Sequence record: PQ438048.1
Reading direction: 5' to 3' (one strand)
Length of the DNA stretch: 64,000 nucleotides
From: Escherichia phage MirsaeidiM_Esher1
This document shows positions 49,002 to 52,361 of this stretch, piece after piece (the first letter of the stretch is position 1; the number at the start of each line of letters is the position of its first letter). The notes under the pieces were generated by a model, which ran no database searches, was not told where the DNA came from, and saw only the letters and a list, made by a program, of their open reading frames with translations. Made by a program: the position numbers and the translations under genes.

Positions 49002-49223
49002 CTACTCCGAAAGAACATTCACTTCGTCAGAGAAAAATACGTAATCACAACCTTCCCAAACATCTTCTTCAAACCACTCCCATCCCTCAACTTTGGACAT
49101 TTCTTCTATCGTAACAAAGAATGTTGTCATATCATCACTAACAAGATGTGCTTCAACAACAAAAGGAATCTGAACATTCTCAAAACCAACATAACCCAAT
49201 ACATCACAAACTCTAATTTTCAT
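49002..49223 (-). CDS. paralog family B member 1
   Basis: Shares MKIR...EA...W.W.E...G.DYVFF with ORF 52131-52361. Confidence 0.6.
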   Translation of the reverse strand: MKIRVCDVLGYVGFENVQIPFVVEAHLVSDDMTTFFVTIEEMSKVEGWEWFEEDVWEGCDYVFFSDEVNVLSE

Positions 49224-49224
49224 A

Positions 49225-49425
49225 TTATGCTCCTTTGTAGATTATGTTGGTGCGTTCACACTCTGCTACCAGCAAGCGATTAGCAATGTTGTCCATAGGA
49301 ACATCAATCTCTACGCTCCAGGCATTGATATACACTTCTTCAATCTTTGCTCCAAGCATTTGTGCGATCAGAGCAACAGCCCCAGCATATTCAAGTTTAA
49401 TCTCAATTACCATTTTGCACCTCAA
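49225..49425 (-). CDS. hypothetical protein (66 aa)
   Basis: ORF track. Confidence 0.5.
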   Translation of the reverse strand: MRCKMVIEIKLEYAGAVALIAQMLGAKIEEVYINAWSVEIDVPMDNIANRLLVAECERTNIIYKGA

Positions 49426-49427
49426 GG

Positions 49428-49628
49428 TTATTTATCTTGCTTGTATCTTACAAGGCGATCACACTCCAGGTCAAGAAATTTCTCCGCATTTCGTTCATGT
49501 CTGAGCACAATACATTGTTCTTTCCAGTCTGTAGCTCTTTGCTGCGCTGCTCCTGGGTCAAAATCCCAAAGCCATGCCGCGAAAAGAACAACTATAACAA
49601 TTACTAAGAAACTAAACACTATTAGCAT
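49428..49628 (-). CDS. small membrane protein (66 aa)
   Basis: ATG 49628 after AGGAGG; hydrophobic N-terminus. Confidence 0.5.
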   Translation of the reverse strand: MLIVFSFLVIVIVVLFAAWLWDFDPGAAQQRATDWKEQCIVLRHERNAEKFLDLECDRLVRYKQDK

Positions 49629-49933
49629 TGCACATCCTCCTGTGTAGCATAATCTTTTACCCATTTTATACGGGCAGCATTCAAATGCAATAGCCCGTTT
49701 CTTTGTGCAAAATCATATTTAAACCAGTCTCCGTCATCAAACGGGTATTCTTCAGACAACCCTGCTTCTCGAAATTGCATTTGCATTTCATAATTTAGAT
49801 CATCGTAACCACCAGTCCAAAGGTAGAGGCAACTACATAATCCTTTATCATGCCAGAAAGGATTATTGTCTGGAGCACCAGCTAACAGCCAGTTATGATA
49901 TGCCTGATAAAATTCTTTAAGTTCCTCTGACAT
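49622..49933 (-). CDS. paralog family A member 4
   Basis: Motifs EFYQAYHNWL, GLCSC, YPFD, RIKWVKD. Confidence 0.6.
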   Translation of the reverse strand: MSEELKEFYQAYHNWLLAGAPDNNPFWHDKGLCSCLYLWTGGYDDLNYEMQMQFREAGLSEEYPFDDGDWFKYDFAQRNGLLHLNAARIKWVKDYATQEDVQC

Positions 49934-50131
49934 TTAACCTCCTGTGTGCAGTGTTGAAAGATACGCAGCAAAAGCATTCTCGGCTGTTTTCACCTCCTCT
50001 TCAAGATCTTCACGCTCTGCTGGCGTTAGCGCATTTCGCACAGCAGCGTCTGCTTCTCGGATTTTTCTTACTAAACGTGAAACATCTTTCAATTGTTGAA
50101 AAGTAGCCATAATCTTCCTCCTTTTAGTCAA
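49934..50131 (-). CDS. hypothetical protein (65 aa)
   Basis: ORF track. Confidence 0.55.
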   Translation of the reverse strand: MTKRRKIMATFQQLKDVSRLVRKIREADAAVRNALTPAEREDLEEEVKTAENAFAAYLSTLHTGG

Positions 50132-50357
50132 ACCAGTTGTATTCGGAAGGGTAACGAGCGTAGTTTGGCTTGTACCCCAGTCTTTTCATCTTAACAGACA
50201 TACGAGTGAAGCCAAAGGTTGTTTTGCCCTTAGACATAAACTTCTTCCCACTCTTCATTGGCTTCTTAGGGTTTTTGATCGTCTGGTGTAACGCTCGCGC
50301 AAGCCACAAAGTGTATGCGCTCGGCACTTGATTAACTTTCATCTTGTTACCTTTCAT
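50124..50357 (-). CDS. basic protein (77 aa)
   Basis: ATG 50357 after GAGGAGG; K/R-rich. Confidence 0.5.
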   Translation of the reverse strand: MKGNKMKVNQVPSAYTLWLARALHQTIKNPKKPMKSGKKFMSKGKTTFGFTRMSVKMKRLGYKPNYARYPSEYNWFD

Positions 50358-50367
50358 CGAAACCTCC

Positions 50368-50577
50368 TCAGTGAACTTCGTGCCAAGTGCCAAACTCTTC
50401 CGCTGATACTTTAGGAACGGCATGAGTTTCTCGGTATTTGTTTAAAGCTTTCTCAACGGCTGTAGCAAAAACATCTTGAGATTTGTGAGGCATATAATAA
50501 GCGCGTCCCATATATGCCAGTGCATCACGTAATTCTTCTGCTTGCTCTTGTGTAACTGTCAACGTGATAGTAACCAT
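50368..50577 (-). CDS. hypothetical protein (69 aa)
   Basis: ATG overlapping upstream stop. Confidence 0.5.
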   Translation of the reverse strand: MVTITLTVTQEQAEELRDALAYMGRAYYMPHKSQDVFATAVEKALNKYRETHAVPKVSAEEFGTWHEVH

Positions 50578-50876
50578 TATTTCACCTCCGACCAATCAAT
50601 AGTGATCCACTCGTATGCCCCGTTCAGATCCATTTCTTTATAAACAATAAGCCCACGCTCACGAAGAATTGCTACTGCTTCATCCATCCACTTCACCTGA
50701 TTGTAGATCGCCCCTGGGTGGGTAGGGGAATTATCCAGACCAAAATCAGATGGCGTGAAATTTCTTGAAGAGTTTCCCGCTCGTGCTTCAGCAAAACATG
50801 TCTCGATCACTTCTTCAACAGGGAAGTTGAAGGAAGCTTCTTTTGCAATACGGCGTAACTGTTCAGTCAGATTCAT
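50577..50876 (-). CDS. hypothetical protein (99 aa)
   Basis: ORF track. Confidence 0.6.
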   Translation of the reverse strand: MNLTEQLRRIAKEASFNFPVEEVIETCFAEARAGNSSRNFTPSDFGLDNSPTHPGAIYNQVKWMDEAVAILRERGLIVYKEMDLNGAYEWITIDWSEVK

Positions 50877-50903
50877 CTTATTCTCCTTTCGTTGTGTGAA
50901 ACA

Positions 50904-51341
50904 TTATAACAGATCTAATGCTTTCAACTCTTCTTTCAATGATTCAGGCAGGTCACATTCAATGTCAATCAGAGATAACAAGTGACCAACAATGCCTTCC
51001 AGATGTTGATACTCACTATAACTTATAAATTCAGAATTGTAAACAGAAACATCGTTAGTTTCTTTCACAACTTCCCCCGCAGACACGCACATAAAAAAGT
51101 TACGCTCTCCGCGAGCTAACAATATCTCCCAACTTCTGAACGGATACTGTCCAGCTTCAATAATATCCCCGCTGTCCAATAAAGTCAATGAGCAAACAGA
51201 CCCTGATTCACTAACATCTTCGACGCGGAAACAAGACCCGTCAATCAAAGCCGCCATTTTGAAATTTTCATCAGAGATCATAGAGAAAGCTTCACATGCA
51301 GCTTTACTTTTGAAACAGTAAACAGCATTAACTTTAAACAT
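50904..51341 (-). CDS. hypothetical protein (145 aa)
   Basis: ORF track. Confidence 0.6.
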   Translation of the reverse strand: MFKVNAVYCFKSKAACEAFSMISDENFKMAALIDGSCFRVEDVSESGSVCSLTLLDSGDIIEAGQYPFRSWEILLARGERNFFMCVSAGEVVKETNDVSVYNSEFISYSEYQHLEGIVGHLLSLIDIECDLPESLKEELKALDLL

Positions 51342-51429
51342 AACATTCCCCTTTTAAACAAAAGACACACCGATGGTAGCAACAACCAGACGCTTATAAA
51401 CTTCAACCTCTTCTGTAGGATTAGCCATT

Positions 51430-51882
51430 TTATGCTCTGCCTAGTTCATCATACCATTTCAAAGCGTCTTTTGGAAGCATACCAAAATCTTCTTTTAGTT
51501 CTTTTTCAATCTCTTCTTTCAGTTCATTCAACACTTGCAGTTGGCGTATTTTCTTCCGTAACAAAGCTTCCCGTTCACTGTTGCTTGGTGTTACTTCATT
51601 TCCTGCTATCATCACATATCCTGTCGGAGAGCAAGGAAGATAGTCATCAATATCTTCTAAAGCATAACGATAATTGGAGTCCAGGAAGTTTACATGCACA
51701 CGATCACATCCAAACAAGGTAGCACGGAATACTTCGTAACGAGTTTCAGATAGGATATGTTGCACACAGACAATACCTACATCATTTTGCACTGCACAGG
51801 TTACATCCAACAAACTTGAATGTTCTTTGACATAATCTGCAACACATTGCACATGTGCTTCCAGTATAGATAGTTGTCTCAT
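51430..51882 (-). CDS. hypothetical protein (150 aa)
   Basis: ORF track. Confidence 0.6.
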   Translation of the reverse strand: MRQLSILEAHVQCVADYVKEHSSLLDVTCAVQNDVGIVCVQHILSETRYEVFRATLFGCDRVHVNFLDSNYRYALEDIDDYLPCSPTGYVMIAGNEVTPSNSEREALLRKKIRQLQVLNELKEEIEKELKEDFGMLPKDALKWYDELGRA

Positions 51883-52127
51883 TTCCTACCTCCCCATAAT
51901 GCTAACATTTTATTGAAAATGGAAACGCGTCGTGCGCGAGATGCCATATCATAATTCATTCTTTCCGTCTCTGCAAGAAATTGATCTACTGTAATCAAAG
52001 CTTTTGTCTTCTCTTTCAGAGTTTGCATATTCATCCATTCACATTCAGAGTACCAATTATCGAAATACAAACTATCAAGAAGATCCATTGCTGCTTCATT
52101 TTGTTGTGGTGTGATCATTGCATACAA
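51879..52127 (-). CDS. hypothetical protein (82 aa)
   Basis: ATGA overlap. Confidence 0.55.
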   Translation of the reverse strand: MYAMITPQQNEAAMDLLDSLYFDNWYSECEWMNMQTLKEKTKALITVDQFLAETERMNYDMASRARRVSIFNKMLALWGGRK

Positions 52128-52130
52128 CCT

Positions 52131-52361
52131 TTAATAAACAATTTCATATTCGTGAGGAAAGAAAACATAATCTTCCCCTTCTCGTGCATCTATCTCGTCC
52201 CAAAACCACTCCTGCACTTCCATCATCTTCGAGAATCGCACATGAGCAAGCCCACTGTATTCCACCGTAGCTTCCAACACAAGTGGGAATTTTGCACGGG
52301 TAAGTCCTTTATAACCACCATCATTCTCAATACGAATTTTCATGCGTTTCATGTTATGCAT
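52131..52361 (-). CDS. paralog family B member 2
   Basis: Similar to ORF 49002-49223 (MKIRI...LEA...W.WDE...GEDYVFF). Confidence 0.6.
   Translation of the reverse strand: MHNMKRMKIRIENDGGYKGLTRAKFPLVLEATVEYSGLAHVRFSKMMEVQEWFWDEIDAREGEDYVFFPHEYEIVY

Follow-up and report, generated by a model that had tools for sequence, protein, structure and literature searches.

The two small genes B1 and B2 of Escherichia phage MirsaeidiM_Esher1 (sequence record PQ438048.1) were found to be paralogs, and they probably belong to two old subfamilies of one gene family (family B) in a recombining block of accessory genes, in which a second family (family A) expanded independently. In this preferred explanation, an A gene lies upstream of each B gene because the copy number of family A is high and the two families share a location, and not because a two-gene unit was duplicated. 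The original prediction had read the same order as an old segmental duplication of an A-B module; both the paralogy and the A-upstream-of-B order were borne out, but specific support for duplication of the module was lacking.

The analyzed stretch of 64,000 nucleotides (the window) is part of a Phapecoctavirus (phAPEC8-like) genome. The genes of the accessory block are small, tightly packed and co-oriented, and their presence or absence and copy number vary between close relatives. Profile searches of the block recovered exactly six copies of family A and two of family B. The block is directly preceded by a 1.5-kb non-coding gap, within which many GenBank records of the phAPEC8-like group have their record ends. 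When compared with close relatives by megablast, the matches were split into three to seven pieces over 4.7 kb, and thus the region is mosaic. A search of 36–64 kb against Rfam yielded zero families at the gathering score, and promoter and terminator counts in the 48.5–55.2 kb interval were not above those of shuffled sequence.

B1 (positions 49002..49223, minus strand) and B2 (52131..52361, minus strand) are open reading frames of 73 and 76 amino acids, respectively, and represent what we call the upstream and downstream subtypes of the family catalogued as phrog_15322, which they match with E values of 2.5e-44 and 3.8e-41. The 73 positions of this profile are covered over the full length, by residues 1–73 of B1 and residues 7–76 of B2. 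The two had been proposed to be clear paralogs, a proposal that would fall if their pairwise similarity were not significant; on alignment the similarity was significant, with 26 of 71 residues identical (37%) and a BLASTP E value of 4e-13 as a single comparison, or 2e-10 when run against all 417 open reading frames of the window. The Smith-Waterman score of 109 was 15.6 standard deviations above 200 shuffles, and the motif originally pointed out (MKIR., FP, GW.W and G.DYVFF) corresponds to conserved columns in the alignment.

B2 starts at an ATG at position 52361, with a GAGGAG Shine-Dalgarno sequence 6 nt upstream, and its N-terminal extension MHNMKRM is kept in relatives; the Shine-Dalgarno sequence of B1, AAGGAG, sits within the 3′ end of the preceding gene. 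Comparison with the phiWec orthologs, at dS values of 1.2–1.5, gave dN/dS ratios of 0.13 for B1 (against phiWec188) and 0.15 for B2. An AlphaFold2 model of B2 had a pLDDT of 94.8 and showed a small SH3-like β domain. The dN/dS ratios, the confident model and the Shine-Dalgarno sequences together show that B1 and B2 are genuine coding genes held under purifying selection.

Family A corresponds to phrog_2510, which all six copies match with E values of 3e-22 to 9e-32. Three of these, all on the minus strand like the other three copies, have no B neighbor: A1 (41584..41970), A2 (42862..43260) and A3 (46297..46623). A4 (49622..49933, E 6.8e-28) lies two genes upstream of B1, A5 (52421..52792, E 3.1e-22) lies directly upstream of B2, and A6 (52782..53126), the tandem partner of A5, follows the non-coding gap and opens the block. 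The claim that each B gene lies downstream of a family-A member was thus correct, as an A copy is found zero to two genes upstream of both B1 and B2. The three open reading frames originally assigned to family A (A4, A5 and A6) are indeed paralogs (E 2e-5 to 9e-28), but the family is not limited to them. A5 and A6 are 40% identical (E 9e-28), and the nearest paralog of A4 in the window is A3 (38% identity, E 2.7e-19).

Two small genes, also on the minus strand, occupy the interval between A4 and B1 (49225..49664; approximately 49428–49628 and 49225–49413), and their annotated counterparts are gp232 and gp231 of phAPEC8. Neither had a profile match to family A or B, nor a Smith-Waterman paralog, including in the A6-A5-B2 segment. 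The gene at 49225–49425 was considered as a cryptic third member of family B, having a Smith-Waterman z score of 4.6 against B2, but was rejected because the family B profile gave an E value of only 3.2.

One alternative to our preferred explanation is that an ancestral A-then-B unit was duplicated as a segment and that the copies diverged to about 35% identity. In this model, each A later duplicated locally, giving the A6/A5 pair at one locus and the extra A gene of the phiWec phages at the other, the A3-type copies budded from the A gene on the B1 side, and the space between A and B was filled by insertion of unrelated genes. A protein-level dot-plot of the two segments is consistent with such an event, in that the similarities between A4 and A6/A5 and between B1 and B2 are collinear, with near-equal tblastx offsets of 3169 nt for A4 and A6 and 3126 nt for B1 and B2. 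However, these were the only similarities: no DNA-level similarity between the segments was detected beyond chance matches (blastn, word size 7), and no other shared gene was detected in a Smith-Waterman all-against-all comparison of 34 genes or in relaxed profile searches.

The gene order itself was evaluated by shuffling. Among shuffles of the 52-gene block, 9% placed an A copy no more than three genes upstream of both B genes, and the share was 20% when only the 33 genes spanned by family A were used. The same pattern plus one direct A-B adjacency was obtained in 6% (52 genes) and 13% (33 genes) of the shuffles. The adjacency of A and B, therefore, does not exceed chance given six A copies, which argues against the duplication of a segment.

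In a neighbor-joining tree of 20 A copies, built from a 109-column alignment and with modest support, the A copies near B2 formed a clade of their own (61% bootstrap), and the A copies near B1 grouped together with the A3-type copies that have no B neighbor (63% bootstrap). Clustering of the copies on each side is what two duplicated modules would produce; however, the copies near B1 are closer to the B-less A3-type copies, and an exclusive clade of the copies near B1 and near B2 appeared in 0 of 150 bootstrap replicates.

The gene order in relatives bears on the same question. In all Phapecoctavirus genomes examined, both B loci have an A gene upstream. This holds even for the divergent phiWec clade, where the order in phiWec188/190 is A-A-z-B2 and A-x-A-y-B1 (x, y and z being other genes), and this conservation speaks for the duplicated segment. 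At the same time, the slot after A5 varies among relatives, being occupied by B2 alone, by a different gene, by the two together or by two B copies: Anhysbys and 3A1_SA_NWU keep the A-A pair and carry, where B2 would be, an unrelated gene of 73 aa, and ZCKP1 and SF1-1 carry two B2-type copies in succession (B2-B2′). Outside the genus, an A gene adjoins B in muut, and phi1_175008 and L022 have one A between an upstream and a downstream B (Bup-A-Bdown) with 4-nt overlaps between A and B genes. The B-A-B arrangement of these two phages could be the remnant of a tandem A-B-A-B array. Against this stands L020, in which the B1-type and B2-type genes are directly adjacent with no A between them; its upstream B is 90% identical to that of phi1_175008, yet an A gene follows only the phi1_175008 copy, as though inserted after it. 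The order of the subtypes is also reversed, being B2 then B1 in Phapecoctavirus and B1-type then B2-type in the distant relatives.

The original prediction had suggested that the co-occurrence of A and B be checked in related phages. The picture is mixed: the two families are adjacent in Phapecoctavirus, muut, phi1_175008 and L022, and non-adjacent in alia, L006–L011 and L019–L021, and B2 is lost from Anhysbys and 3A1_SA_NWU although A-A is kept. Scans of IMG/VR for B recovered no locus in one case and a single locus in another. In alia the B gene has no A upstream, and L006–L011, L019 and L021 likewise carry B with no A nearby. The protein alia_128 was considered as a hidden A copy and discarded, as hhalign gave a probability of 0.3%. 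In the relatives with a changed slot after A5 and in alia, A and B appear to vary independently, with separate gains and losses, which is a further point against a segment that was duplicated as a unit. On balance, we regard the segmental duplication as possible but rather doubtful. Nevertheless, some functional or ancestral link between A and B may exist, because A adjoins B in muut, phi1_175008 and L022, the latter two with the short overlaps described above.

Family B, which is also listed as VOG6032 in GenBank notes on the orthologs, is restricted to Stephanstirmvirinae-like phages with a size near 150 kb, and a profile built from it found 111 clusters. In a tree of 118 B domains, a deep split separates the clades of B1 and B2, although the midpoint rooting is uncertain. 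The identity of B1 is 47% with the upstream B proteins of phi1_175008 and L020, compared with 37% with B2; that of B2 is 45% with the downstream B of L020 and 53% with the single B of Justusliebigvirus. Beyond the genus, B1 is closest to B1-type proteins from other lineages, with P0065 at 56%.

This closeness of B1 to proteins of other lineages would also be expected if B1 were not an in-genome duplicate at all and had come by recombination from a co-infecting relative carrying a B1-type gene, landing beside an A gene by chance or through local homology. Exchange across genera is visible in the accessory block, in that muut (a Justusliebigvirus) has an A gene nearly identical to an A5-type allele of Phapecoctavirus, and the mosaic megablast matches point in the same direction. 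However, almost every Phapecoctavirus record has B1, with its position and its neighbors unchanged, so that any transfer would be as old as the genus, and at this depth a transfer is indistinguishable from an ancestral duplication. We consider a separate acquisition of B1 to be improbable.

Our preferred explanation instead takes B1 and B2 to be anciently separated subfamilies of one SH3-like β domain of about 70 aa. Their split would have happened before Phapecoctavirus parted from Justusliebigvirus and from the phi1_175008-like Klebsiella phages. Since B1-type and B2-type genes persist side by side in distant relatives, its most likely origin is a duplication restricted to B. Family A would have expanded separately, through tandem duplication in place and through unequal crossing-over, and the genes of the block would have behaved as single-gene cassettes that are gained, lost, exchanged and fused. 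A duplication of A-B together with later A-only duplications and rearrangements needs more steps than a B-only duplication and an independent expansion of A. Relatives carry up to nine or ten A copies, and fused forms are seen in both families: gp127 of muut and P0116 have an A6-like N terminus joined to an A5-type body, and P0067 and P0069 are chimeric B proteins. The B domain occurs alone, in tandem or, in relatives, fused to a Cys-rich C-terminal tail, and eight clusters encode B-B-tail fusions.

As to function, scans of the A, B and B-plus-tail proteins against Pfam, NCBIfam and PADLOC gave no matches (at E ≤ 0.1 for PADLOC and NCBIfam), profile searches of PDB sequences with A and B gave nothing at E ≤ 1, and a BFVD structure search with B returned only uncharacterized viral proteins. 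We found nothing on the two families in the literature on phrog_15322 and phrog_2510, on Phapecoctavirus paralogs and early genes, or on Stephanstirmvirinae anti-defence. The record of Shigella phage SF1-1 labels the B1 ortholog as lambda Ea8.5. Ea8.5 homologs have a helical homeodomain/zinc-finger fold, and the label looks spurious given the β-rich model and the lack of a Pfam match or of a PDB sequence at E ≤ 1. B1 is very acidic (pI 4.05). We infer that B is a small acidic protein-binding domain, which probably binds a host or phage protein in host takeover or counter-defence, with the paralogs having diverged in their target.

An AlphaFold2 model of A6 is a five-helix all-α domain, although the alignment behind this prediction was shallow (19 sequences), as word-indexed protein searches for A had yielded only 9 and 12 hits. 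The conserved motif of the family is GLC...PF...R..WV, in which C35, P72, F73, R96 and W99 are invariant across 119 sequences. The family comprises 1,888 clusters at E ≤ 1e-3, and it occurs in phages without B, namely N4-like, T7-like, siphovirus and Rhizobium phages. In a broader reading, A and B together would serve as effectors of host takeover or counter-defence, a diversifying arsenal whose genes open the first block beyond the non-coding gap. B would then be a new SH3-like binding module, armed in relatives with a Cys-rich and possibly zinc-binding tail; A would be a new all-α family, about 1,900 clusters in size, in which a Cys, an Arg and a Trp are invariant; and the two would act together where their genes overlap by 4 nt, as in the B-A-B arrangements of phi1_175008 and L022. 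We think this broader reading unlikely.

Taken by themselves, B1 and B2 are a case of ordinary gene-family turnover and of little significance, and the repeated A-then-B order does not make a good case that an operon was duplicated. More generally, gene-order patterns in the accessory regions of phages need to be judged against the copy number of the families concerned. As by-products of the analysis, family A emerges as a very large family whose fold is predicted with confidence and in which a few residues are invariant, and family B emerges as a modular domain. Either family would be a reasonable choice when small phage proteins are screened for binding to host or defence proteins.

Compared with known systems, the range of phrog_2510 extends far beyond the Stephanstirmvirinae, and neither a Pfam or NCBIfam model nor a solved relative exists for this family; it is the same as VOG7392, the identifier given in the notes of the alia, Anhysbys and muut records, and is described as uncharacterized phage proteins of about 105 aa. 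The catalogue entry for phrog_15322 gives no function and no subtypes, and to it we add two old subtypes, the tail fusions, a predicted fold and the variation in gene order. The closest known folds for the model of B would be the SH3-like small β-barrel domains, and its remote structural relatives include proteins of about 70 aa in the T4-like phages Merlin and RB49. T4-like phages have many small non-essential early genes, and the multi-copy families of small open reading frames in large lytic phages are, like the genes of the block described here, small, packed, co-oriented and variable in copy number.

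The ORFs at 49002-49223 (B1) and 52131-52361 (B2), both on the minus strand, were found where the original prediction placed them, and their products are 37% identical over the whole length (E 4e-13 in the pairwise comparison and 2e-10 against all ORFs of the window; Smith-Waterman z 15.6). Both proteins matched phrog_15322 (family B) from end to end, a Shine-Dalgarno sequence is present for each gene, the AlphaFold2 model of B2 had a pLDDT of 94.8, and dN/dS relative to the divergent orthologs of the phiWec clade was 0.13 for B1 and 0.15 for B2, with dS saturated. Therefore, B1 and B2 are real genes and real paralogs, as had been proposed; the pair is old and under purifying selection. 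The proteins are small and acidic (pI 4.05 and 5.28). The label "protein ea8.5", carried by the B1 ortholog in the GenBank record of Shigella phage SF1-1 (locus L005, 18929-19150), had neither sequence nor fold support.

The three family-A (phrog_2510) ORFs named in the original prediction, at 49622-49933 (A4), 52421-52792 (A5) and 52782-53126 (A6), are likewise paralogs, and an all-against-all search gave six copies in the window, the others being at 41584-41970 (A1), 42862-43260 (A2) and 46297-46623 (A3). Relaxed profile searches found no further copies of A or B. Family A is independent of B and much larger: it comprises 1,888 clusters at 50% identity and E ≤ 1e-3 (those listed are P0121-P0268), some of them tandem two- or three-domain fusions, and it is present in many unrelated phage groups; the N4-like, T7-like, siphovirus, phi92-like and Rhizobium phages that carry it lack B. 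Its predicted model is a confident five-helix structure, with Cys35, Pro72-Phe73, Arg96 and Trp99 invariant (A6 numbering). For neither family was there a match in Pfam, NCBIfam, PADLOC or PDB sequences, and no paper on either was found in the literature. A single A gene in muut (gp127; locus L016, 1123-1497), in cluster P0116 and in SF1-1 (L005, 13567-13941) has an N terminus resembling A6 and a body resembling the A5-type allele of anhysbys, which looks like the result of unequal crossing-over between tandem A copies. A Justusliebigvirus carries this same allele, which suggests that genes have been exchanged between genera.

The 48.7-53.4 kb region, in which all genes are annotated as hypothetical, is 95-97% identical to ESCO37, phAPEC8, Schickermooser and about 100 other Phapecoctavirus genomes (Stephanstirmvirinae), but the match is split into 3-7 pieces per genome, and the region is therefore a mosaic. 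As judged from GC skew and ORF layout, about 50 small genes lie closely packed on the minus strand between about 53.1 kb and about 36.5 kb. Read in the direction of transcription, this block has the pattern AAB...C...A..B......A..C.....A..A..., in which C denotes a third and weaker pair of paralogs. The 99-aa C protein (50577-50876; phrog_15686 and phrog_37387 are the families of the pair) resembles the C-terminal half of the 184-aa member (45235-45789), with 31% identity, E 5e-7 and Smith-Waterman z 16. Upstream of the first gene of the block, a 1.5-kb gap without a credible ORF (53127-54627) comes after a strong intrinsic terminator on the minus strand (54650-54628). Within the gap, this strand has a long low-complexity run that is rich in A+C and poor in G (about 54480-54060), and Rfam gave no match within 53127-54660. 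A gap of 1.5-1.9 kb also precedes the equivalent block in alia, ZCKP1, SF1-1, phiWec and metagenomic relatives. The gap may be the site of a genome terminus or terminal repeat, because the GenBank records of Schickermooser, ESCO5, vB_EcoM_01, WPEC4 and Ro121lw start or end within it.

The original prediction further read the two A...B arrangements as an old segmental duplication of an A-B module. In favour of this reading, A4 with A6 and B1 with B2 are collinear at almost equal offset in the protein dot-plot, and the arrangement is retained in phAPEC8, ZCKP1, SF1-1 and the phiWec clade, which has two A copies ahead of each B. However, when gene order was shuffled, each of the two B copies had an A no more than three genes upstream in 9-20% of trials, and there was no other similarity between the two segments at the protein or DNA level. 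The A copies group by position, with the near-B1 copies joining the B-less A3-type copies (63% bootstrap), whereas an exclusive group of near-B1 and near-B2 copies appeared in 0 of 150 replicates. In Justusliebigvirus there is only one B, which is B2-like, preceded in muut by A and one other gene and in alia by no A. The slot just after A5 also differs in content among close relatives. We consider an ancient A-B duplication followed by duplications of A alone rather unlikely; the observation itself was confirmed, and its interpretation as a module is only partly supported.

Turnover of the block proceeds by single-gene cassettes. The slot between A5 and B2 (52362-52420; also 13027-13236 in L001 and 3225-3446 in L012, loci of relatives) follows the A-A pair, after which the window has B2 alone, phAPEC8 (gp243) and phiWec have an unrelated 69-73-aa gene plus B2, anhysbys and 3A1_SA_NWU have the gp243-like gene without B2, and ZCKP1 and SF1-1 have two B2-type copies.

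Family B comprised 111 clusters (P0001-P0111) in a collection of 5.8 billion proteins, none of them with a Pfam domain, and where clusters had long contigs these were about 130-156 kb; the GenBank phages that have the family are all Stephanstirmvirinae or Klebsiella relatives of these. Some proteins consist of the B domain only (70-85 aa); others are extended at the C terminus by a conserved Cys-rich tail of about 55 aa, and 8 clusters have this tail behind two B domains. The tail in relatives reads RK..L..LV.DYG.AI.DGCYESECGS..M.ACHEEEKRLLKEIIKMIEEGV, and examples of fusions are at L003 4317-4775 and L009 8001-8675. In phi1_175008, L020 and contig L022, the upstream B is followed by a short tail of a second, distinct kind. 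The match of phAPEC8 gp239 is confined to the Cys-rich tail region (E 4e-6).

The clearest picture of A/B history comes from distant relatives. In phi1_175008 and L022, an A lies between an upstream B and a downstream B with tail, with 4-nt overlaps. L020 has this pair of B genes side by side, without an A between them, although its upstream B shares 90% identity with the phi1_175008 counterpart. With 47% identity to B1, the upstream B of phi1_175008 clearly belongs to the B1 type, whereas that of L022 is only 26% identical to B1. In L006-L011, L019 and L021, there is a B-tail or B-B-tail fusion, and A either is absent within 7-8 kb or is met only 14-30 genes further downstream. The subtypes occur as a tandem B pair, between which A has been gained and lost. 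Identity across lineages (47% between B1 and the upstream type, 45% between B2 and the downstream type) exceeds the 37% between B1 and B2, and the two subtypes therefore predate these lineages. In Phapecoctavirus the subtypes stand in the opposite order, with B2 first, and B2 is separated from A4 by seven unrelated genes. Rearrangement or separate acquisition is required in any scenario.

Recombination between tandem copies is evident in the B chimeras P0067 and P0069 and in the A6-A5-type joins of muut gp127 and P0116. We infer that the B1/B2 split would have started as a tandem duplication of B alone, and the A...B pattern would be due to A copy number and shared location. With low confidence, the small acidic proteins, binding-type predicted fold, modular fusions and place at the head of the accessory block suggest that B most likely binds a host or phage protein in takeover or counter-defence, with the paralogs differing in target. 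Both families are already catalogued, though uncharacterised, and the behavior of A and B described here is ordinary for large lytic phages.
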